From the NCBI GenBank assembly GCA_001782165.1, contig MFNV01000002.1, positions 81,002-145,001 on the forward strand: 64,000 bases of DNA. The letters are read 5' to 3'. The position numbers and the translations under genes were made by a program. This stretch comes from Candidatus Levybacteria bacterium RIFCSPHIGHO2_01_FULL_41_15. Lineage in GTDB: Bacteria; Patescibacteriota; Microgenomatia; Levybacterales; UBA12049. The notes beneath the pieces were generated by a model. That model saw only the letters and a program-made list of their open reading frames with translations, did no database searches and was not told where the DNA came from. Shown in pieces: positions 15,017-64,000 of this stretch. Numbering within the stretch: the first letter of the stretch is position 1; every line of letters starts with the position of its first letter.

Positions 15017-15040
15017 TTTTAATATTAATCTAAAAAATAC

Positions 15041-15445
15041 ATGAGGACAATCATAAGAAACATTGTTTTCTATTCATTTTCTTTATTCGCTCTGACTCAA
15101 ATTATTTCTGGAGTTAAAATTACAGGAGGAATTGAGACTTTTGTTTTGGGAGGAGCGGTATTGTCTATAATGTTTCTTATAATAAAACCAGTGCTTGACC
15201 TTATTGCTCTGCCTTTTAATTTACTTACGCTTGGAACGTTTTCTTTTCTTTCAAATACTGTGATTCTTTACCTTCTTACTCTTTTTGTTCCCGAAATTAA
15301 GGTAACGTCCTTTTTATTCAAAGGTTTTTCCTATTCAGGATTTATAATTCCCCGAACAGAAGTAAATCAAGTTTTTGCCCTTATAGTGTCAGGACTTACT
15401 CTATCTGCTATAATTACTTTCCTGACATGGTTAATAAGAAAATAG
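15041..15445 (+). CDS. small 4-TM membrane protein (DUF360/phage-holin-superfamily-IV-like)
   Basis: 134 aa, four hydrophobic helices, no enzymatic motif. Confidence 0.35.
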   Translation: MRTIIRNIVFYSFSLFALTQIISGVKITGGIETFVLGGAVLSIMFLIIKPVLDLIALPFNLLTLGTFSFLSNTVILYLLTLFVPEIKVTSFLFKGFSYSGFIIPRTEVNQVFALIVSGLTLSAIITFLTWLIRK

Positions 15446-16380
15446 TTTGTCTTGGAGGCGGGGTGGGAACTGCCAATCTCCTCCGTGGTATTAAGGAGTA
15501 TTTCAACGATATTACCGTAGTCGTTTCAATGGCGGATGACGGAGGCTCTGCGGGAAGATTAAGGCGATATTACAAAACTTTTCCCACGGGTGATATTATA
15601 AATTGTTTGATTGCGCTATCGGAAGCAGACCGTACATTAATAGATCTTCTTAAGTACAGGTTTAAAGGACGAAGATATGGCCCTGATAATTTACTGCCCG
15701 GACAAAAACTTGGAAATCTTATTCTTGTCGCCTTGAGTTCAATAAAAGAGGATTTCAACAAAGGGCTTTTGGAGATTCAAAGGATATTTAAGACAAAAGG
15801 TAAAATTTACCCTTCTACCACAACCCCAATATCCATCTGGGCAAAAACATCCACAGGCCATATCGTAACAAGGGAAGAGAATATAGATCTTGGCAGATTC
15901 AAGGGGCAGATCAAAAAGCTCTTTATAAGACCCAAGAATCCCGATGTAGATGAAAAGGTACGCAAGTCTATAAGAAACGCAGATATAATAATAGCAGGCC
16001 CTGGAGATCTTTATACTACAATTCTTCCCGTTCTTATGGTACCGTCCATCCTTGGGGATATCAAAAAATCAAATGCAGAAAAGTTATTTGTTGTAAATGT
16101 AGCGAATAAGCCGTTTGAAACACCAAGATACACAATAGAAGACTTTGCGCAGGCTATAAAAAAGCACTGCGGAGATATCATTTTTAATACCTTTTTGATA
16201 AATAATAACCAAAAGCCTGAAATCCCACAACAGTGGCGACATCAATATAAATATGTACCTCTTTTAAATGGGCAGAATAGGTACCCCTTCAAAGTAATCG
16301 AAGATGATGTGGTTTATGAAGGTTTTCCTCTCTATCACGATTCGGAAAAACTTGCAAAAGCAATTGCAAAGAATATATAA
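15427..16380 (+). CDS. YvcK/CofD-like protein (UPF0052; gluconeogenesis factor family)
   Basis: IVCLGGGVGTANLLRGIK and VVSMADDGGSAGRLRR...PTGDIINCLIAL match the UPF0052/CofD signature. Confidence 0.75.
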   Translation: MVNKKIVCLGGGVGTANLLRGIKEYFNDITVVVSMADDGGSAGRLRRYYKTFPTGDIINCLIALSEADRTLIDLLKYRFKGRRYGPDNLLPGQKLGNLILVALSSIKEDFNKGLLEIQRIFKTKGKIYPSTTTPISIWAKTSTGHIVTREENIDLGRFKGQIKKLFIRPKNPDVDEKVRKSIRNADIIIAGPGDLYTTILPVLMVPSILGDIKKSNAEKLFVVNVANKPFETPRYTIEDFAQAIKKHCGDIIFNTFLINNNQKPEIPQQWRHQYKYVPLLNGQNRYPFKVIEDDVVYEGFPLYHDSEKLAKAIAKNI

Positions 16381-16616: not shown

Positions 16617-17972
16617 ATGATCGTATTCAGACGGCGCCTGATTTTTTGGCTGATCAGAGCATATTTTAAGAAATGGGGAAAAACAATTCTTGTTTTCTTT
16701 ATACTTGGGCTTCTCGTATTTTTTGCGCTCAGATATTTTGTAAGAATAATACCTTCGGCTTTTCCTTTTCTTTCAAGAGAAACTGTGGGAATTGCGGGTA
16801 CATATACAATTAATGACCTTCCTCCCTCAATTTTTTACAAAATTTCAAGAGGGCTTACATTTGTTGACAAAGGTAGCGTCGTAAGACCCGATATTGCAAA
16901 AAGCTGGAAAATCGGGAACAATGGAAAGGAGTACACGTTTTATTTAAAAAATAATATCTACTTTGCAGACGGAACTCATTTTACATCAAAATATATAAAC
17001 TACAACTTCAAAGATACGCAGGTTAAAAGGCCCGATGACTATACGATTACCTTCGTCCTTAAAGAACCATACTCGCCTTTTCCTGTCACAGTAGCAAGAC
17101 CTATTTTTAAAAAGGGATTTGTCGGTGTAGGAGATTATCGGGTTAAATATATAAAATTTAATGGAGATTTTGTATCCTCTATTGATCTTGTGTCAAATTT
17201 TGAACCACCTCATATTATAAGATATCAATTTTTTCCTACTGAGGAGGCTTTAAAAATGGGCTTTGTTGTGGGTGATGTTTCAAGAGCTTTAGGAATTCAT
17301 GACCCCTTGTTTAAAGGAAAAAAATTAACTTCATTCAAGTCTGTAAAATCCTCAAGATCACTTGATGAGAAAAAACTGGTGACAGTTTTCTATAATACAA
17401 AAGATCCCACTCTTTCTGATAAAAGGGTGCGGGAAGCTTTTTTTTATGCAATGCCCGATGCTTTTGAGGATGGAGAACGGAATTCTTCCCCCTTTTCCCC
17501 AAGTTCATGGGCAAGTACGGGAACCAAAATTTCTCTTCAGGATTTAGTGCATGCCAGGGAACTCATATCTTCCTCGGAATCCGCATCGAAATCCTCAGGT
17601 CTTACATTTACGCTTAAGACTCTCCCCCAGCACAGAAAAACCGCAAATATTATTAAAGAGAACTTCAAAAAAATTAATGCCATTCTTAAAATTGAGGAAG
17701 TTGATTCAGTTCCATCTCAATTCCAACTTTTTTTGGGAGATTACAACCTGCCCAAAGATCCCGATCAGTATACCTTATGGCACTCAGAACAAACAAGTAA
17801 TATAACGGGGTACAAGAATCTTAGAATTGATAAGCTTCTTGAAGACGGCAGAAGAGTCTCTGACATTAACGAAAGGAAGAAAATTTACACTGATTTTGAA
17901 AAGTATCTTCTTGATGATCCGCCGGCTTCTTTTCTCTATCTTCCCTATACTTATACTATTTTCAGAGACTAG
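16617..17972 (+). CDS. extracellular solute-binding protein, family 5-like (peptide/nickel SBP fold), membrane-anchored
   Basis: N-terminal TM, then VRPDIAKSWKIGNNGKEYTFYLKNNIYFADGTHFTS (SBP_bac_5 signature region). No cognate permease nearby. Confidence 0.55.
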   Translation: MIVFRRRLIFWLIRAYFKKWGKTILVFFILGLLVFFALRYFVRIIPSAFPFLSRETVGIAGTYTINDLPPSIFYKISRGLTFVDKGSVVRPDIAKSWKIGNNGKEYTFYLKNNIYFADGTHFTSKYINYNFKDTQVKRPDDYTITFVLKEPYSPFPVTVARPIFKKGFVGVGDYRVKYIKFNGDFVSSIDLVSNFEPPHIIRYQFFPTEEALKMGFVVGDVSRALGIHDPLFKGKKLTSFKSVKSSRSLDEKKLVTVFYNTKDPTLSDKRVREAFFYAMPDAFEDGERNSSPFSPSSWASTGTKISLQDLVHARELISSSESASKSSGLTFTLKTLPQHRKTANIIKENFKKINAILKIEEVDSVPSQFQLFLGDYNLPKDPDQYTLWHSEQTSNITGYKNLRIDKLLEDGRRVSDINERKKIYTDFEKYLLDDPPASFLYLPYTYTIFRD

Positions 17973-19246
17973 GACTTAACTGTTTTTGAAAAGATCGTTC
18001 TGTGGTATGAAACGGCAAACCTGTGGGCTTCATCCCGAATTCTCATTACTAAATGTAAAGCTTTGGAGTTCTTTGGTAATTTAATTACGGCAAAATCCGA
18101 TGTTACTATTGTTTCTTCTCTTTTTGCAATTCCGATTAGAGGAATATCAAGATTTTTTCTTTTGAATACTTTTTGAGCAGAAGATACCTGTCCTTTCCCT
18201 CCATCTATTATTATCAAATCTGGAAATGGCCATTCCCTATGATTTAGTCTGCGCGATACAACTTCTGAAATCATCGCAAAGTCATTTGGTTTTCCTTTTG
18301 TAAATCTTATCTTAAATCTTCTATAAAGTGATGTTTCTTTTTCTCCGTTTATAAAAACAACCATGGAGCCTGTGGAAAACTTTCCTGAGATATTTGATAT
18401 GTCGAAAGATTCGATTCTTTTAAGTGAGGAGACTTGCGACTCTGTGTTTTTAAGTTCTTTTTTTAAGACCAACAGCTCTTCATTTTTTATATCTTCTTTT
18501 AGATTGGGATTAACTTGAGAGTCAAAAGAGGGATAAGAAGGACTTGTAGCAATTAGAATCGAGTTTATTTTTTCCTGAAGATTATTTGCTTTTTCATATT
18601 CTTCCTTTTTGCTTTCCGTATCTCTTTCTTTTTCTAAATCTCTTAGTACTTTTTTTGTTCCCCCCGATAGAAAGTTAATTATATGATTTATGTTTTTTCT
18701 ATATTTCTTTTTAAGATTTTCACTGTCAAAAACAGGCGGGCATGGACATAACCTCAGATGGTTATAAAGACAGATTCTTTTCGGGTGGCTTAGAGCAGAT
18801 TGAAAGGGAAATATTTTCCTGATTGTTTTTAAAACAAGCCTCATAGCCCCTGTATTAGGATAAGGACCAAAATAAATTGAGTTTTTGTCGTCTTGTCTTC
18901 TTGCTATAAGGACCTTAGGATACTTATCTTTTTTGGTAATTCTGATAAGGGGATATACTTTTCCGTCTGTAAGTCGTAAATTGTAGAAAGGTAAATATTT
19001 TTTTATGTAATTTGCTTCAAGAAGGAGAGCTTCTATTTCGGAGTGAGCTTTTACTGCTTTTACTTTATGTGTTTTTTTTATGAGGATTCGGGTTTTTTCT
19101 CCTAAGCTTTTACGGTTGGCAAAATAACTTGTGACCCTTTTTTTTAGGTTATTTGCTTTTCCGACATAAAGGACACTACCCTTTTTGTCCAAAAAAAGGT
19201 ATATTCCAGGATTTGAAGGCAAGTGCTGATATAAAAATTGCGACAA
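17969..19246 (-). CDS. uvrC: excinuclease ABC subunit C, short form lacking C-terminal (HhH)2 domain
   Basis: N-terminal GIY-YIG (PGIYLFLDKKGSVLYVGKANNLKKRVTSYF), C-terminal RNase-H-like endonuclease (LIIIDGGKGQVSSAQ...RDEAHRFA). 425 aa. 5' end overlaps the upstream ORF by about 70 nt. Confidence 0.75.
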   Translation of the reverse strand: MSQFLYQHLPSNPGIYLFLDKKGSVLYVGKANNLKKRVTSYFANRKSLGEKTRILIKKTHKVKAVKAHSEIEALLLEANYIKKYLPFYNLRLTDGKVYPLIRITKKDKYPKVLIARRQDDKNSIYFGPYPNTGAMRLVLKTIRKIFPFQSALSHPKRICLYNHLRLCPCPPVFDSENLKKKYRKNINHIINFLSGGTKKVLRDLEKERDTESKKEEYEKANNLQEKINSILIATSPSYPSFDSQVNPNLKEDIKNEELLVLKKELKNTESQVSSLKRIESFDISNISGKFSTGSMVVFINGEKETSLYRRFKIRFTKGKPNDFAMISEVVSRRLNHREWPFPDLIIIDGGKGQVSSAQKVFKRKNLDIPLIGIAKREETIVTSDFAVIKLPKNSKALHLVMRIRDEAHRFAVSYHRTIFSKTVKS

Positions 19247-21011
19247 TTAATATTCCTCCTCCTACAACCAACCCCCATTTACTAAAGAGAATCGGGTAAA
19301 TTCTTACTCTGCGTTCAAACAAATTTGATCCAAGGCCAATTCTAATAAGATCTGTTCTATTTGTCAAAGGATTTGCCGCCTCAAACGATAAAGGCAAGAC
19401 TAAATTTCCGTATGGAGGTATAGGTTTTAAGTAAATATTTTGTAAATTGGGCTTGAGATAATAAGATCTGACTGTAATTTTTTGGGGAAAAGAGAGCAGT
19501 GTTCCCGTATTTTCCAGCGTAATATTTCCCATAAGGGGAAGTCCTGCTGTCAGATTTTTGGGGATGTTGTCTGAAATTTCAAGGGTCGGGCTGGTGTGTG
19601 CAAATTCATTAGCAAAACTGACTCTTACATCTTTAACTTTTTCATTCCCCGGCAGTTTATACCCGCCTGCAGGAACCGGATAGGTACTGTCGTGCCCTTT
19701 TATTACAAACGCAATGTGGTCAAAATCAAGAGTCTCAAAATAATCTATTCCGCCGGTTGTATTCCCCCAAGTAGGATCAACCATAATCCACGCGGCTTTT
19801 TCTCTATCATAGTATTCAGGCCAGGCATGCAAAACATCCTTTACCAAAGACAAAGGCCTTTCTCTGGTATTTTGAGTATAGGCGTATCCGTCCACCTCTC
19901 TTGCCGGAATTCCTGAAGCTCTTGCCAATGCAATAAAAAGATCTGTAAATTCAAGACACACTGCGGATTCAGGTTTTTGAAGCACTCCGGCGGCGCCTAT
20001 TCTGGGTTTTTCAGTCTCAACTCTTGAATAATCGTATTTTAATTTTTTAACAACGTACTCATATATAGATTTCGGGTTTTTAAGGTTTCTTGACAGCTGT
20101 TTGATTTCGTTATTTGATATCTGCCAATACTTGTCTTCCTTTAGGTAGCTTTGCAGTTGTTCTTCGGTGTAGTTTTGCTTTTCAGGAAAAAGAGAGATTT
20201 TGACTTTTGCCTTCAAGGATACATCAAGCCTTTGAGAGGAGGAAAGAGTATATTGTGCAAGCCAATTTCCATCCTCATCTATCGTTACGTTTGAAGGCTT
20301 AGGGTTAATGCTGTCTATCTCAACTTCCTGATACCCTGTATTAGGAGGAAGAGCTATTTCTGTTTTAATAGGAAAAAGGTTTTTATTATAGAGGTGATAG
20401 GTCAAATCTAATTTATAAATCTGCTCATTTCCAAACGTAATTGAAATACCCGAATTCCCAAGCTGGTCTTTTGAAAAGGTGTAAATGTTTTCATTTTTCT
20501 TAAGTCCATCTGAAAGGCTGGGTTTGACAAAACTTGGAGAGCCAAAAGAGGAAGGGACGGAAACATAAACACTAAAGTCTGATAAATCAGATTGGCTTAA
20601 AAAACCTGGTATATTTACTTCCCATATTTTGCCTACTTTTCTGGCAACTTCATTAGTATCAAAAGCAATTGTAAAATTTAGCTTGTTTCCAAGACCCGTT
20701 ATCCTGTCATTGAAAATAACATTTATTTCCTGTCCTTCGGAGGTTTTAGAAACACTCTTAAGAATATTGCCTCCTAAGTCAGATGCTCTCGGATTTTTAG
20801 GATCATCAAAACCCACGTTTATTTTGTAAGAAGATGCATAATATGATGAAGTTTTATTCGTAAGGGCAACTTTTATCTCAACACGGGTATTTCCGTTTTC
20901 TGAAACCGCATATGATATGTCATAATCCGCATCAAAATTTGAAGATGCCGATGTTTTCCCAGGCAGAAAAAGGAGGAATAGAAGCAAGAATACCAATAAT
21001 ATTTTTTTCAC
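19176..21011 (-). CDS. secreted, C-terminally membrane-anchored transglutaminase-like (Cys-His-Asp) domain protein
   Basis: Signal peptide MKKILLVFLLLFLLFLPGKTSA. Core CLEFTDLFIALARASGIPAREVDGYAY...LHAWPEYYD...WIMVDPTW (C/H/D triad). C-terminal TM WGLVVGGGILIVAIFISALAF. Confidence 0.7.
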   Translation of the reverse strand: MKKILLVFLLLFLLFLPGKTSASSNFDADYDISYAVSENGNTRVEIKVALTNKTSSYYASSYKINVGFDDPKNPRASDLGGNILKSVSKTSEGQEINVIFNDRITGLGNKLNFTIAFDTNEVARKVGKIWEVNIPGFLSQSDLSDFSVYVSVPSSFGSPSFVKPSLSDGLKKNENIYTFSKDQLGNSGISITFGNEQIYKLDLTYHLYNKNLFPIKTEIALPPNTGYQEVEIDSINPKPSNVTIDEDGNWLAQYTLSSSQRLDVSLKAKVKISLFPEKQNYTEEQLQSYLKEDKYWQISNNEIKQLSRNLKNPKSIYEYVVKKLKYDYSRVETEKPRIGAAGVLQKPESAVCLEFTDLFIALARASGIPAREVDGYAYTQNTRERPLSLVKDVLHAWPEYYDREKAAWIMVDPTWGNTTGGIDYFETLDFDHIAFVIKGHDSTYPVPAGGYKLPGNEKVKDVRVSFANEFAHTSPTLEISDNIPKNLTAGLPLMGNITLENTGTLLSFPQKITVRSYYLKPNLQNIYLKPIPPYGNLVLPLSFEAANPLTNRTDLIRIGLGSNLFERRVRIYPILFSKWGLVVGGGILIVAIFISALAFKSWNIPFFGQKG

Positions 21012-57825: not shown

Positions 57826-58006
57826 GCCGGAGTAACTCAGTGGTAGAGTAGCTCTTTCGCCCGCCTGCCATAGCTTGCCAGGATAGCTCAGCTGGTAGAG
57901 CAAGGCTTTCGTAAAGCCGAGGTCGTGGGTTCAAATCCCACTCCTGGCTCAGGCAAGCGGCGGACAGGTAAAGAGCAAGTCGTGGGTTCAAGTCCCACCT
58001 CCGGCT
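57826..58006 (+). tRNA. interrupted 'host' tRNA (Thr-like identity; anticodon depends on splice sites) carrying a 116-nt anticodon-loop intervening sequence that contains tRNA-Thr(CGT)
   Basis: 5' half GCCGGAG/TA/ACTC-AGTGGTA-GAGT/A/GCTCT (57826-57855). 3' half AGAGC/AAGTC/GTGGG-TTCAAGT-CCCAC/CTCCGGC/T (57972-58006). 7/7 acceptor, 4/4 D, 5/5 anticodon, 5/5 T stem pairs. T-arm nearly identical to the nested tRNA-Thr. Confidence 0.6.
57877..57949 (+). tRNA. tRNA-Thr(CGT), nested inside the intervening sequence of the host tRNA
   Basis: GCCAGGA/TA/GCTC-AGCTGGT-AGAGC/A/AGGCT-TTCGTAA-AGCCG/AGGTC/GTGGG-TTCAAAT-CCCAC/TCCTGGC/T. Anticodon CGU. G1-C72 and C2-G71 are Thr-type. Confidence 0.85.
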
Positions 58007-58059
58007 CACATTCTGTACTAAGTTTAATTGAAGTAACTCGTACTGAGTTTTATCGAAGT

Positions 58060-58776
58060 ATGAATAGGAATAAATATTCCCGCCTTTCAAAGCGGCTTGA
58101 AAAGCAGTCTCAAAAAAACCTAATATTAAGTGCTCTTGGAATACTTGTAGTTATTTTCCTTCTTGTGAAATTCGGAATTCCCCTTCTTGTAAATTTTTCC
58201 GTATTTATAGGAAGCTTGGGCAAAGCTGATGAGACCGTTAAAACCGAAACCGAAAGCTTTGTAACTGCGCCCATACTCGATATACCTTTTACTGCCACAA
58301 ACAGTGCTCAAACAAGAATAACAGGGCAGTCAACAGCAGAATCCACAGTTTCAGTTTATCTTAACGGTTCCCTTTTTGAAAAAAACGAAGTTGAGAAGGA
58401 TGGAATTTTCTCTTTTTTAATAACTTTAAATGATGGAGAAAATAGAATAAAAGCAAAAGCTGAGAAAGATAATAAAGAAAGCGACTTCTCTGATGAGCTT
58501 ATTATTATTTATCAGAATAAACCTCCATCTCTTGAGATAAAGTCGCCAACAGAAGGCCAAAAATTTGAAAAAGATCAGAACACGGTTATTGTTACCGGAA
58601 AAACAGATTCGGGAACAAGAGTAACTGTTAACAGCTTTTGGGCGCAGATTGATGAGGAAAATAATTTTTCATACAATCTGACTCTTCATGATGGAGATAA
58701 CGAAATAAAAATAATCGCAGAAGACAAAGCTGGCAATAAAACAGAAAAAAATATAAAGGTCAATTATTCTCCGTAA
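58060..58776 (+). CDS. membrane-anchored protein with two Ig-like (Big-like) beta-sandwich repeats
   Basis: Start moved to ATG at 58060 (the longer ORF overlaps the tRNA genes). TM LILSALGILVVIFLLV. Two about 90-aa repeats ending ...DGENRIKAKAEKD / ...DGDNEIKIIAEDKAGN. Confidence 0.4.
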   Translation: MNRNKYSRLSKRLEKQSQKNLILSALGILVVIFLLVKFGIPLLVNFSVFIGSLGKADETVKTETESFVTAPILDIPFTATNSAQTRITGQSTAESTVSVYLNGSLFEKNEVEKDGIFSFLITLNDGENRIKAKAEKDNKESDFSDELIIIYQNKPPSLEIKSPTEGQKFEKDQNTVIVTGKTDSGTRVTVNSFWAQIDEENNFSYNLTLHDGDNEIKIIAEDKAGNKTEKNIKVNYSP

Positions 58777-58793
58777 GTCCTTTAATGAATTGA

Positions 58794-60361
58794 ATGAATA
58801 GGAAAGTTTTTATTCCACTTTGTGTATTCATTTTATCTAGGCTTATCTTTATTAACTATCTCCCTGTTTTTTTTGATGCCCCGGAATATTTAGACAGATT
58901 TTTCAACCCTGATTACTTTAAGGCAATAATTTCCGGACATCTCCCTCTTCATATCGGGTACATCTTACTATATTGGCCAATATTCCGCTGCGCTATTTTT
59001 TTTGGGTTTAATCCTTCTCTAACAATCATTGTTGCTCAGATCTTATTATCTACCATTGGCATTTACTGCTTTTATCGTTTTATTGAAATAGTAACAAATA
59101 GAAGGATTGCCTTTATTGGATCACTTATCGCAACACTTACTCCATTGTACTGGATAATGAACGTCTCAATCATGACTGAGTCAACATATATAAATTTTTT
59201 TCTAATATCAATATTTTTTTAGCAAAATATGGAAAAGAGGAGGAACACTCTAGGATTACTCTTTTTGCTGGCTGTATATTTTTTGCCTTATCATTTCTCA
59301 CTCACCCCCTTGTCATACTATGGTTACCATTTTTAATATCTGTAATATATTTTTTTAAGAAAGAAAAGATTTTTATTACCCTTCCTGCGGTAATTATCGC
59401 CGTCATTCTAGCGGGTTTATTAAATAGTTTCTTTATTGCAAACGCCTTGAATATATCTTTTCAAAACGGAATATATAAATACTTATTTGGTCAAGGAATA
59501 GCCTTTACACCAACCATTCATTCATTTTTGACGTTAATAAGACTTATTAGAAACGCTGTTATTCCGCTCTTACAAAATAATAATTCTGTTATATTCTTTT
59601 TGGGTGCAATTTCGCTTATTCTGAAATTTAAGGATAGTAAAAAATTATTCACCGTTGGGTTTTTATGGATTATCCCAGCTCTTATTGTAAATCAATGGTT
59701 TGACTTCGACGCTCTCCTTTTTGGCCGTCATGCTGCAATCACAGGGTTTGGATTTGCATTTTTTGCCGCAATATTTTTAGAAAAAAGAAGAATATTATGC
59801 CTTTTGGTAATTTTATATGTACTGGCCTCTTCCCTACCAGCTTTGACTCTTTTAAAGCAGCCCATACCTTATCTTACCGAACAAAAATTTGTTCAACAAC
59901 TTCCTAAAGGGCTTTTGATTGAAAGTCATTTCGCACGTCCTCAGGTTCAAGGGTATTATAATGGCGAAATTATATTTACAAACGAAACAACTTTAAGTAA
60001 GAAAGAGATAGGGAGAATAATCGATAGATACCTAGATAATAACAAACCTATATTTGTTACCTCCCAAGCGCTATCTGATCCATATGGATTGTATTCGGGA
60101 CCATTTCTCCATATGATATCACTTTCTTACGTTAGGGGATATTTCCTAGAAGATGTAATCAGGCTGTATTCGCTGAACGAATACGCAACGATTGATAAAG
60201 ACGCAGGCCTTACGATATACAAAGTAATTGAGAAAACTAATTCTTCCTACCCAAACATTCAAAAATTAAAAAATAATAGACGTCAAATAGATTATTTTGA
60301 CCCTTTAAGTCGATTAATAACATCATTAAGCATATTATTATTTACTCGTTATTATCCATAA
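58794..60361 (+). pseudogene. GT-C superfamily membrane glycosyltransferase (ArnT/PMT-like) interrupted by a frameshift at a T7 homopolymer (two ORFs 58794-59222 and about 59180-60361 overlap)
   Basis: N-terminal ORF (142 aa, frame 0) and downstream ORF (frame -1, open from 59180) overlap across ATATTTTTTTAGC (T7 at 59214-59220). Joined they give an about 520-aa polytopic protein. Confidence 0.55.
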
Positions 60362-61532
60362 TCCCCGCTACTATCCACACCCAAAACATAATGAATGAGT
60401 AAAACAAGCCATTTATGAATAGACTCCCCACAAAAATAGAGACTGTTGACGGAATAAACAAAGATAATTTTTTATTTGATTTTATCAGCTTATACCAAAT
60501 AGATAAGTATAGGATTAGTCCAATGATTCCAGTGGTTGCAAGAATAAATAAATAACTATTGTCCGTAGTCGCATCCGCATGACTTGTCACAGAAATTTTG
60601 CTGCCATATCTCTGTCTTGCAAATTTATAGCTATTAAAACCCACTCCAAATACTGGGTTGTCCTTGAAAATATTAAAAGCTAATCTCGCAGAGTCAAACC
60701 TTGCCTCAGAAGATACTATCCTTAAGAAATTAGTTCCTTCGGTCTTGTAAGCTTTTGGGAGAAGAAAAGTTAAAACAACAAATAAAAAAACTAAGATAAC
60801 TATGTAGATTGGTCTTCTTTTGAGAATAAAAAACATCACAGCCCCAACTATAAGCATTATGAATGCACTTCTTGAGTAAGTTAAAAGTATCGCAAGAAAT
60901 GTACAGACTGAAAGAAAAGAGTAAATAAGCAATTTTTTTTTGTTTTTCAAATTTTCGAATATCAAATCCAACAAAAAAAGGAAATACAATACAAAAAAAG
61001 CTCCGGCAAAATTGGGATCTAAAAAAACTGAAAACATCCTGTATAAATGCTCATCCCAACCCAAATAGAAAAGATTTCTTAAACTTTGATAGAAAGTAAA
61101 TTGTATAAATCCTGCTGTCACAATAATCGCGCCAATGAAAATAAGATATGATTTAATTGTGTCTTTAAACTCTCGATCAAAACTACTGACTATTGTAAAA
61201 AGACTTGCATACCCAACCCACCTTAATAAATATGCAAACGAGACGATACCTTGGTTTAAATCCAAAAATTTTAGATTTATTAAAAGGGTCCATAAACAGT
61301 AAATAGAAAAAATAAGTGCTGGAGCATAAATGGTTTTTGATATTCTTTTCTTCAGGAATGAATATATCAACCAAAAGCCAAAAGTTAACGCAACTGTAAG
61401 ATCTAATAATTTTGTTTCAATTCCAAAAATTGAAAAACGAATAAGTTCACCAAAAACAAAAGAAACCAAACAAACTATAATAAGAACTTTTAGTACATTG
61501 ATGTTTACTATTTCTTTTGCCATAATTGCCAA
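60342..61532 (-). CDS. O-antigen ligase/polymerase (Wzy_C)-like polytopic membrane protein
   Basis: 396 aa, about 10-12 TM helices. Central loop LTYSRSAFIMLIVGAVMFF resembles the O-antigen ligase domain. Confidence 0.5.
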   Translation of the reverse strand: MAIMAKEIVNINVLKVLIIVCLVSFVFGELIRFSIFGIETKLLDLTVALTFGFWLIYSFLKKRISKTIYAPALIFSIYCLWTLLINLKFLDLNQGIVSFAYLLRWVGYASLFTIVSSFDREFKDTIKSYLIFIGAIIVTAGFIQFTFYQSLRNLFYLGWDEHLYRMFSVFLDPNFAGAFFVLYFLFLLDLIFENLKNKKKLLIYSFLSVCTFLAILLTYSRSAFIMLIVGAVMFFILKRRPIYIVILVFLFVVLTFLLPKAYKTEGTNFLRIVSSEARFDSARLAFNIFKDNPVFGVGFNSYKFARQRYGSKISVTSHADATTDNSYLFILATTGIIGLILYLSIWYKLIKSNKKLSLFIPSTVSIFVGSLFINGLFYSFIMFWVWIVAGIMDNNE

Positions 61533-62254
61533 AGCTTTCCGCGGACTAGAAATGAATGAAAGCTCATCATAAGAGCATATATTAAACCCCGTATCCCGTC
61601 TAGAAAACCGAGCTTCAAAAAATAATTGAGAATAAATTTTCCTTTAGTATAAATAATAATCTCTAAAAATCCTGATCTGACTTTTTTTTCAAAGAGTTCT
61701 TTTGCCCGGAGATTGGTATAAAAATTAATTTCCGTAAGGAATTCATTTACTGTTTGATGAGGATAATGATAGAGTGAATTTTCTAATTTCCCCACTTTTC
61801 CTTTAATCTTCCATTCCTCGTGAATCTTCCCCTCCCATTTTCCCTGTAATTTTCTTGCAAGTCGCAGAAGCCAAATATTTCCCGTCTCCCCATGCTTCAA
61901 TTCCTTACCCCATGTGAAATCTCTTCTCTTAATATAAAACCCGCTGCATTGGTTAATTGGATTATTGGTTAATCCGATTATTTCTTCGCAAAGCGAAGGA
62001 GTTACTCTCTCATCTGCGTCTACAAAGAATACCCACTCATTTTTCGCCTTTTCCAAACCAAAATTCCTCTGAGAAAAGAAATCACCGTTTAAATCTCTTC
62101 TGAAGACTTTCGCGCCCAGCTCTTCAGCTATTTCTCTCGTCTTATCAGTTGAATTATCGTCAATTAAGATTATTTCATCACACCACTTAACACTCTTGAT
62201 ACAATCTTCTATATTTTTTTCCTCATTTTTAGTTAAAATAACAGCAGATATCAT
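61508..62254 (-). CDS. family 2 glycosyltransferase
   Basis: MISAVILTKNEEKNIEDCIKSVKWCDEIILIDDNSTDKT and DADE motifs (GT-A fold). 248 aa. Confidence 0.85.
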   Translation of the reverse strand: MISAVILTKNEEKNIEDCIKSVKWCDEIILIDDNSTDKTREIAEELGAKVFRRDLNGDFFSQRNFGLEKAKNEWVFFVDADERVTPSLCEEIIGLTNNPINQCSGFYIKRRDFTWGKELKHGETGNIWLLRLARKLQGKWEGKIHEEWKIKGKVGKLENSLYHYPHQTVNEFLTEINFYTNLRAKELFEKKVRSGFLEIIIYTKGKFILNYFLKLGFLDGIRGLIYALMMSFHSFLVRGKLWQLWQKK

Positions 62255-64000
62255 TTTTTCTCTATTATTATACCCTTTGATGTTTCGGAAATTATAATTT
62301 TAGTTTTTACACTTTCGCGGCTTGCAGGATGACTCTTCCACCACAACAAGTATTCATAATTCATGGTAAAACTCTCAAACTGGCTTCCTTCACCCTTACC
62401 TAATAAATTGTATTCCTGATCTTGAGTCAGAGCTATTATTCTTCCTACCGCATTCAATCTATTTTTAAACGACAATCCCTCATTGATACGAGAATTATTT
62501 TTAAAAAGCGGGTAGACATTAAAGCTTACTAAAATGATTAAAAATGTAATACCAATAAGTTTAAATGTATTGCTCACTATCAGTTTATTGAAAACTAATC
62601 CCGCAATTATAATAATCGGAGGAAAAAAAATTGGAAGGTATGCCTCAGAGGAAGTTTTTGCGATCAAAAATCCCAAAAATGAAATTATAAAATAAATTCC
62701 GATTAATAGATAACCTAATTGAATTTTTTTCTTTCCGATATCTTTATATAGAATAAAAAAGAAAAGCGAAAAAGATATTATCAATAAAATTAAGGCGATC
62801 TGATAACTTTCTGCAAAAATTAATCTTCCGTAAGACTCAAGAAAAAAATTTAGAACCGTAAGATAACTCGATTGTTCAGTTATTGAACCGACGCCGGGGA
62901 GCCCAAAAAATTTTAAAAACTTATATCCTATCCAAGCTATGAATTTAAAGGTTTGCGGAAATCCGTGATTAAAATCATAAATCAAAATTGGCAACATCGG
63001 AACGATAAATCCAATTATCGATAAGAGTATTATTTTAGGATTTTTAAGTTTGGATACAAATTGCTTTTTTTTATAAATACCGTATACCATAAATAAAACC
63101 AGAACTATCCATAGGGAAGTTGTGGATAGTTCAAGATTATAAAGAATAGAAAGCACAAGAATGACAGCGGGAAAAAACATGGCTTTTCCCGAAAGCCATT
63201 TATAAATAAACAGGATAAATAATAAAGAAAAAAAGGGAATCAAAGTAGTATGATAGGGCATTCTCGAGTGCAAAACGGTAAGAGGTGATACCGCATAAAG
63301 CAAACCTGATACGAGTCCTGTTTGTCTTGAAAACAGTATTGTACCCACTCTATATATTAGGAACGTTGACAGAACACTAAAAATCGCCGTAAAATAGGCG
63401 GGAGCGACAGGATTAAAATTTGAAATTAAAAAGATTAAACTTAGAATATACGTCCACAAAGGACCCTGATGAAGCCAAGTGTGGCTTGACGTAATTCCAA
63501 CCAGAGGAATGTTTCCTGTCAATAATAAATCTCGCGCAGACAGATAAAACCATCCCTGATCTCCTATAAATTCCATGGTTGACCCTAGTTTATAGAAACG
63601 GAGAAGCGCTGCAAGAAAAAGGATGATTGTTAAAAATAAAAGATTTTTATTAAATCGAAAAAATAACTTTAATATTAAAGCAAGAAACGAGCCATACCAT
63701 TTTTTAAAATAGTAAAACCTGCTCTTTGAAAATATTTCTTTTATGTCATTTCTTTTTTTTGTACTTATCCCACCAAAATGAATAATTTTTGCATCTGGGA
63801 CAGAATAATTTCGATAACCTTTAATTTTTAATCTTTTGCACAAATCTGCTTCTTCAAAAAAAAGAAAAAATTCTTCATCAAATCCTCCAATTTCATCAAA
63901 AACTTTCTTTTTTATCATTAAGGATGTTCCGGGAACTACGTCCATTTCTCGCACCGCTTTTCTGTCCCAATCTTTATAAAAAAAATTTTCGGCTATCCAA
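62251..64000 (-). CDS. fusion of GT2 C-terminal region with GT-C (ArnT/PMT_2-like) polytopic domain; 5' end beyond window
   Basis: Visible N-terminal portion ...GGFDEEFFLFFEEADLCKRLKIKGY is the typical GT2 C-terminal segment, followed by >12 TM helices. Reading frame continues to the window edge. Confidence 0.5.
   Translation of the reverse strand, partial: WIAENFFYKDWDRKAVREMDVVPGTSLMIKKKVFDEIGGFDEEFFLFFEEADLCKRLKIKGYRNYSVPDAKIIHFGGISTKKRNDIKEIFSKSRFYYFKKWYGSFLALILKLFFRFNKNLLFLTIILFLAALLRFYKLGSTMEFIGDQGWFYLSARDLLLTGNIPLVGITSSHTWLHQGPLWTYILSLIFLISNFNPVAPAYFTAIFSVLSTFLIYRVGTILFSRQTGLVSGLLYAVSPLTVLHSRMPYHTTLIPFFSLLFILFIYKWLSGKAMFFPAVILVLSILYNLELSTTSLWIVLVLFMVYGIYKKKQFVSKLKNPKIILLSIIGFIVPMLPILIYDFNHGFPQTFKFIAWIGYKFLKFFGLPGVGSITEQSSYLTVLNFFLESYGRLIFAESYQIALILLIISFSLFFFILYKDIGKKKIQLGYLLIGIYFIISFLGFLIAKTSSEAYLPIFFPPIIIIAGLVFNKLIVSNTFKLIGITFLIILVSFNVYPLFKNNSRINEGLSFKNRLNAVGRIIALTQDQEYNLLGKGEGSQFESFTMNYEYLLWWKSHPASRESVKTKIIISETSKGIIIEKK

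Follow-up and report, generated by a model that had tools for sequence, protein, structure and literature searches.

A one-base frameshift interrupts a GT-C glycosyltransferase gene in a Levybacteria surface-glycan cluster

In the genome of Candidatus Levybacteria bacterium RIFCSPHIGHO2_01_FULL_41_15, which inhabits groundwater and is uncultured, a gene for an ArnT/PMT-like GT-C glycosyltransferase is interrupted by the loss of a single base in a run of thymines. The gene lies in a 64-kb stretch of contig MFNV01000002.1 (positions 81,002 to 145,001 of the forward strand), called the window here, and all coordinates are those of the window. In public records its two pieces appear under separate entries, each as a hypothetical protein (OGH23754.1 and relatives; UniRef A0A1F7HJU2). 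The evidence supports their being parts of one polytopic protein of 522 amino acids (aa), as the initial annotation had proposed when it described them as halves of an ArnT/PMT-like protein of about 520 aa. The same deletion recurs in every assembled copy of this locus that was read, and the orthologues of other species are intact. We think it probable that the frameshift is real, fixed, and young, and that it most likely inactivates an accessory GT-C enzyme in one clonal Levybacteria population.

The first open reading frame (ORF1) begins with ATG and ends after 142 aa at a TAG (59220-59222). The −1 frame is preceded by a TGA (59177-59179), is open from 59180, and closes at 60359-60361, giving a 43-bp overlap with ORF1. 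The initial annotation had this layout right, and also the prediction that a change of one T would fuse the frames, since one T added to either of the two T tracts in the overlap yields a 522-aa ORF. Of the tract lengths it gave, the T7 at 59214-59220 stands, while the supposed T6 at 59195-59200 is actually a T7 that extends to 59201. The −1 frame holds 393 stop-free codons (P ≈ 2e-15, given 0.082 off-frame stops per codon in the window), and its first 89 codons contain no ATG, GTG, or TTG, the longest start-less lead among the long ORFs of the window. These two features, together with a Pfam match across the junction, mean that the −1 frame is clearly coding. Gene callers place a 304-aa ORF at the first TTG of this frame, which is probably an annotation artefact and no true start. 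The 20 nucleotides (nt) upstream of that TTG show nothing resembling a Shine-Dalgarno sequence, and the product would miss residues 143-218, which form conserved helices. A search for an internal promoter or terminator between the two parts of the gene gave nothing above chance. The databases also hold a 145-aa variant of ORF1 (P0094, "MNWMNRK..."), which starts three codons upstream and has Trp for the TGA at 58791-58793; one of the pipelines applied genetic code 4 to the organism, and the variant looks like an annotation artefact.

The identity of the gene was established from profiles, homologues, and predicted structure. The Pfam PMT_2 (PF13231) match spans the junction, covering residues 69-206 of the fused protein, which scores 30.6 bits against a cut-off of 26.1, whereas ORF1 alone scores 20.7 and falls below it. 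The fused protein also scores 23.8 on Glyco_transf_22, exactly at the cut-off. It has 88 homologues, nearly all 510-545 aa long, and about 80 of these relatives are encoded in a single frame; those with a named source come mostly from Candidatus Levybacteria metagenome-assembled genomes (MAGs). An AlphaFold2 (AF2) model based on an 80-sequence alignment reached a predicted local distance difference test score (pLDDT) of 90.9 and a predicted template modeling score (pTM) of 0.91. In this confident model, multiple helices make up a membrane domain, an alpha/beta domain begins near residue 370, and the frameshift junction falls inside the membrane helix formed by residues 129-148. A Foldseek comparison with the PDB returned 19 matches at E values of 1e-3 or below, all of them GT-C enzymes (TM-scores of about 0.39-0.54), including STT3/OST, ALG9, ALG12, ArnT, DPY19, PglB/AglB, and AftD. 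Across the 80 sequences, D28 is invariant and E31 is at least 90% conserved; the two residues fall between helices 3-17 and 29-37, where they may have a catalytic role. All 19 family-invariant residues are retained in the window on the two sides of the break, namely, R16, D28, G48, H49, H53, P117, and W120 in the N-terminal part and R253, P295, R312, P359, P383, A426, P430, Y431, Y434, G436, P437, and L444 in the C-terminal part.

The lesion lies 27% into the gene. Its position follows from the orthologue peptides, which read ...NFFLIS[I/L]FFL[A/V]KYGK... and thus equal a fusion at the second tract. Fusion at the first tract would produce a peptide found in no orthologue (NFFSNINIFLAK), and that tract was rejected as the lesion site. 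At the second tract the expected intact form would be ATA TTT TTT TTA or TTT TTC TTA, encoding I-F-F-L. The closest comparison comes from a sister species that shares some samples with the window organism and carries a syntenic 522-aa orthologue with 74% amino acid identity. Here the sister reads CTT TTT TTC TTA GTG and the window reads ATA TTT TTT -TA GCA. This is the sole gap in the aligned DNA region, and the protein alignment is gap-free across all 522 codons. The lesion thus consists of one nucleotide lost from the F-F-L codon string.

Among 15 species-representative genomes, the homologous gene is single-frame in each and has no internal stop, and the sister species gene is intact on at least 24 contigs, some of them from samples of the window organism. 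A comparison with orthologues, which the initial annotation had suggested for both frame and tract length, thus finds intact genes and no long T run kept. The homologous codons of the 15 species are varied, with mostly interrupted or short T runs. A run of seven is ordinary in the window, where the A/T runs number 88 at length 7, 41 at length 8, seven at length 9, and one at length 10, or 137 of at least 7. The GT-C gene itself contains two T8 and three T7 runs (the third T7 at 59350-59356), and both T8 runs (58867-58874 and 58996-59003) were assembled in frame. The T run is what Phe codons look like at 33-36% GC; in the preferred reading it raised the likelihood of a deletion and is no dedicated switch. 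The other overlapping ORF pairs in the window were considered as further split genes and rejected, since the pairs at 15029-16380 (holin-like/CofD) and 17969-21011 (UvrC/transglutaminase-like) each consist of unrelated genes; there is accordingly no sign of genome-wide frameshifting. The second of these pairs lies on the minus strand. Its short UvrC-like gene (424 aa) encodes a GIY-YIG domain and an RNase H-like endonuclease domain, and it shares 71 nt with the end of the gene for a transglutaminase-core protein of 610 aa.

The deletion is reproducible. Seventeen public contigs and three NCBI protein accessions carry exactly this 142-aa product. Identical T7/T7 tracts were found in 12 of the 12 loci read, although the look-up is biased to split gene calls even with two loci (L011 and L012) that were retrieved through the downstream ORF. 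The loci come from eight assembly records (Joint Genome Institute [JGI] 3300002502, GCA_001788045.1, ERZ28563625, ERZ28563803, ERZ27254763, ERZ27254845, ERZ27254846, and ERZ4903137), which represent at least two distinct biosamples and carry both scaffold-style and k141-style contig names. No intact window-type gene was found in a protein database of 5.8 billion clusters, where the best full-length match was 74% identical. A variable-tract DNA pattern scan of JGI metagenome contigs, with a pattern that does match the window, gave no intact allele, and a protein-based scan of JGI metagenome contigs recovered only the 74% sister species.

The preferred explanation starts from an ancestral TTT TTY TTA, encoding F-F-L in a membrane helix, in which deletion of one base would have shifted the frame of a 522-codon gene. 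Translation from the normal start would then end at the new TAG after 142 residues. The fragment would retain the first-loop acidic D28 but would miss the C-terminal domain entirely and roughly two thirds of the membrane domain, and the remaining 380 codons would be without a usable start in their own frame. With a truncated fragment and no start for the rest, the enzyme is most likely absent or made in traces by slippage. A reproducible lesion that is missing from the orthologues is what a recent pseudogene is expected to show. Frame transitions that are not shared by homologues are regarded as indel mutations or errors (PMC3711429). The age of the lesion was considered through constraint. 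Relative to the sister species, the ratio of nonsynonymous to synonymous substitution rates (dN/dS) comes to 0.14 over the gene as a whole, with 0.08 in the N-terminal part and 0.17 in the C-terminal part, and neighboring genes give 0.13-0.17. There are zero further indels over the 522 codons, and the frameshift is the only defect. The lesion is thus very recent or the gene is still selected, and the clonal data are compatible with both. Because the assemblies are clonal, a strain-level dN/dS for the time after the lesion is not obtainable. In one variant contig (L001), the C-terminal part carries two nonsynonymous changes and no synonymous change, including D503Y at a nearly invariant site; these changes are weakly suggestive of relaxed constraint, and they may be errors.

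Several observations weigh against a young, fixed, inactivating lesion. The absence of decay fits a gene expressed by slippage as well as it fits a very recent lesion. The window-type assemblies are about 100% identical, making them essentially one clone without evolutionary depth, and the records may share read sets as re-assemblies, in which case the truly independent data sets number fewer than eight. One protein from the Plass/SRC protein assembly (P0002, run SRR3989344) crosses the junction in one frame, reading INFFLISIFFLAKYGKEEEH, with window-type residues flanking the junction on both sides. It means that at least one read had the extra base, whether from a minor allele or through an error. 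P0002 is chimeric, with sister-type residues at 1-114, window-type residues at 133-398, and the switch within the identical stretch 115-132, and its two private substitutions are both of the G>T type that is typical of read errors; it may rest on a single erroneous read. Look-ups of the exact products P0001 and P0002, aimed at an intact window-type allele, returned zero contigs. Two assemblies also break in the N-terminal part of the gene (L011 begins at 58874 and L012 at 58946), which is the most conserved region between the two co-occurring species. These breaks and the switch in P0002 likely reflect assembly confusion between strains or, less probably, recombination.

The alternative raised by the initial annotation, that orthologues would also be split, does not hold at this site, where they are intact. 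A few other family members carry lesions elsewhere in the gene. On a 2.9-kb contig of the sister species (L013; ERZ909588, SRR1658462), one base in 2911 differs from the eight other sister loci. This C>A change at position 580 turns Ser139 into TAA at a place homologous to about 59208 of the window, four codons before the frameshift site, and it may represent either a true loss-of-function allele or an artefact of the 8-oxoguanine type. A relative with 51% identity (L036, on a 17.5-kb contig of JGI 3300014502) has an in-frame TGA at 2480-2482, at about residue 160, where relatives have Cys, and gene calling splits its gene into two of 159 and 355 aa that share one frame. Selenocysteine at this TGA was set aside without a test, given the membrane-helix position, the lack of redox context, and the single substitution that leads from TGY to TGA. 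In a third relative with 38% identity (L037, 600-984), the conserved N terminus (SRFFFINPQPVFFDSPEYL...) is in frame. A stop falls at about codon 8 of this gene, and its first ATG, GTG, or TTG comes at around residue 53; the start is either damaged or noncanonical. These lesions are point mutations, not tract changes. Together the cases suggest that the gene is dispensable and occasionally lost. That three of the lesions cluster at residues 139-160 (142 in the window, 139 in L013, and about 160 in L036) may be coincidence or artefact. A search with ORF1 alone for further N-terminal fragments gave two hits from nine candidates and was uninformative on recurrence.

Of the three options named in the initial annotation, pseudogenisation fits best, while sequencing error and phase variation fared worse. 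A consensus error, with a true genome that has T8 and an intact gene, would be in keeping with the status of homopolymer indels as a classic error type, with a gene that has no other defect, and with the one Plass protein that reads straight through the junction. However, the same T7/T7 in 12 loci from eight records and at least two biosamples, the in-frame assembly of two T8 runs in the same gene, and the intact assembly of the co-occurring sister (T7-C-TT at the homologous site) from the same samples make a chance or consensus error very unlikely, and we give it hardly any weight. Phase variation, in which slipped-strand mispairing in replication would toggle the tract from T7 (off) to T8 (on) and back and so vary a surface glycan, is also improbable. 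The gene does sit among surface-glycan genes, the lesion falls in a homopolymer, P0002 implies one or more reads with the restoring base, and poly-A/T runs of at least 7 near frameshifts serve as an indicator of such loci (PMC3711429). Yet both tract lengths would be expected among assemblies of a contingency locus, and all 12 loci have T7, with the database and contig searches returning no intact form; the tract would be expected to stand above the genome background and to be kept in orthologues, and T7 is commonplace in the window and mostly broken in relatives. The site is also well inside the gene and within a membrane helix, and P0002 is a chimera whose private changes are G>T-type.

It is unlikely, though less so, that the frameshift is real and some full-length enzyme is still made, leaving a low-expression allele. 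RNA polymerase could occasionally insert an extra U on the A7/U7 run, or, while UAG occupies the A site, the tRNA-Phe in the P site could slip back one base (UUU to UUU), after which UUA-GCA would be read. Both routes would restore the ancestral I-F-F-L-A-K-Y-G, the seven U's abut the stop with perfect −1 re-pairing in the P site, and the 380 downstream codons show no decay. Genes frameshifted at A/T runs are described as decodable by transcriptional slippage with an efficiency that depends on the organism (PMC1088944; see also PMC5009743). Against such rescue, the frame transition is not conserved among about 80 homologues and 15 genomes and so is not programmed, the downstream 96 nt fold no better than shuffled sequences (z = 0.23), and there is no Shine-Dalgarno-like element just upstream of the site. 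At 7 nt the run is shorter than the 9 at which selection against slippage can typically be seen, and slippage may be suppressed in AT-rich genomes (PMC1088944). The zero-frame tandem-slip heptamer A UUU UUU is also imperfect. Of the features expected of programmed recoding, then, AUA UUU UUU UAG offers slippery P-site re-pairing, and conservation and a stimulatory element or a run of at least 9 are missing. A functional split gene, in which the 142-aa piece and a separately initiated C-terminal piece form an active two-chain GT-C, appears highly improbable. Three independent family lesions fall within residues 139-160, neither part has decayed, and a strong Shine-Dalgarno-like GAGGAGG (59237-59243) stands 11 nt ahead of an in-frame ATT at 59255. 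However, ATT starts are rare, no ATG, GTG, or TTG occurs in frame until the TTG at 59447, a start there deletes conserved helices, the break is in a helix and not in a loop, about 80 relatives are single-chain, and the sister nonsense codon is a lone C>A on one short contig that may be an artefact. The GAGGAGG motif lies within coding sequence for K-E-E-E, and the sister species (GAAAAAAAT) does not share it. Two more speculative ideas, which we consider a long shot even when taken jointly, are that U7-UAG may be read through at a useful rate, whether tRNA-Phe slips into the −1 frame at the stop or RNA polymerase stutters, so that the frameshift would attenuate expression of a surface-glycan enzyme in a bacterium of the candidate phyla radiation, and that there may be recurrent selection to truncate or split the protein at one helix, to which the three independent lesions in three lineages would point.

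The frameshift affects a gene that sits in a surface-glycan cluster with an Ig-domain protein, a Wzy_C protein, a GT2 glycosyltransferase, and a GT2-PMT_2 fusion (Table 1). The pairing of the Ig-domain and GT-C genes is also seen in the sister species and in L021 and L036; it is kept down to about 51% identity and not beyond. A tRNA-Thr(CGT) gene at 57877-57950 is overlapped by a mechanically called 283-aa ORF with a GTG start (57925-58776). For the Ig-domain protein, the start at 58060 (238 aa), as in most public gene calls, is more likely.

Table 1. Features of the interrupted GT-C gene and its neighborhood in the window
Feature	Position	Strand	Remarks
Ig-like-domain protein, secreted or anchored (Big_6, Big_13, Glucodextran_B)	58060..58776	+	17 nt upstream of GT-C start
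GT-C gene, N-terminal part	58794..59222	+	142 codons, then TAG created by frameshift; PMT_2 partial match
T7 run, not the lesion site	59195..59201	+	fusion here would give NFFSNINIFLAK
T7 run, frameshift site	59214..59220	+	one base short relative to orthologues; single 1-nt gap relative to sister species
GT-C gene, C-terminal 380 codons	59221..60361	+	−1 frame; remaining membrane helices and C-terminal alpha/beta domain
304-aa ORF of gene callers (probable annotation artefact)	59447..60361	+	start is first TTG in −1 frame
Wzy_C (O-antigen ligase/polymerase-like) membrane protein	60342..61532	−	convergent neighbor; Wzy_C 76 bits
GT2 glycosyltransferase	61508..62254	−	Glycos_transf_2 89.9 bits
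Second GT-C (PMT_2), GT2-PMT_2 fusion	62251..63954 (given also to 63999)	−	736 aa in complete copies; runs toward window end

For annotation, the consequence is that two public hypothetical proteins should be one frameshifted GT-C gene. For biology, it is a strain-level difference in surface-glycan capacity between two co-occurring Levybacteria populations, with the enzyme intact in one and broken in the other, which is the variation expected under phage or host-interaction pressure. The frameshift itself is an ordinary kind of feature and involves no new mechanism. If tract heterogeneity or read-through were true, the locus would be a modestly interesting first example of contingency or recoding in this Levybacteria-type uncultured group.

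The protein shares with known GT-C enzymes (CAZy GT39/GT83-like; ArnT, PMT, and STT3/PglB) a PMT_2 match above the cut-off, an N-terminal polytopic membrane domain with a C-terminal soluble domain in the AF2 model, and an invariant Asp (D28) and nearly invariant Glu (E31) after the first helix. It differs from solved GT-C structures in sequence, with identities of only 9-14%, and its clade is nearly confined to Levybacteria-type MAGs and has its own conserved C-terminal motifs, ESHFARPQV and SQALSDPYGLYSGP. Known GT-C enzymes depend on lipid-phosphate sugars; the gene of the window is interrupted, and its membership is assigned from profile and predicted fold. Homopolymer contingency loci are found in surface-glycosylation genes, such as the poly-G tracts in lipooligosaccharide (LOS) or capsule genes of Campylobacter or Haemophilus. 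The window gene resembles these in being a surface-glycan gene with a homopolymer frameshift reversible by one base, but its tract is short and not conserved in orthologues, and no on/off polymorphism is seen among assemblies. Genes rescued by transcriptional slippage at long A/T runs (Thermus dnaX, insertion sequence elements, and endosymbiont genes; PMC1088944, PMC5009743) likewise have an A/T run at the transition, and in the window an added RNA base would restore the ancestral protein; there, however, the run is 7 and not at least 9, and the arrangement is not conserved. A further counterpart is the singleton fs-gene class of GeneTack (PMC3711429), represented by frameshift pseudogenes at homopolymer runs in AT-rich bacterial genomes; in that framework the frame transition of the window would count as an indel mutation and not as recoding or conserved phase variation. 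The window differs from that class in that replication across assemblies largely excludes the error option and that no further decay has set in yet, and it shares with it a single poly-T indel, intact homologues, and two halves that are recognizable by BLAST and Pfam.

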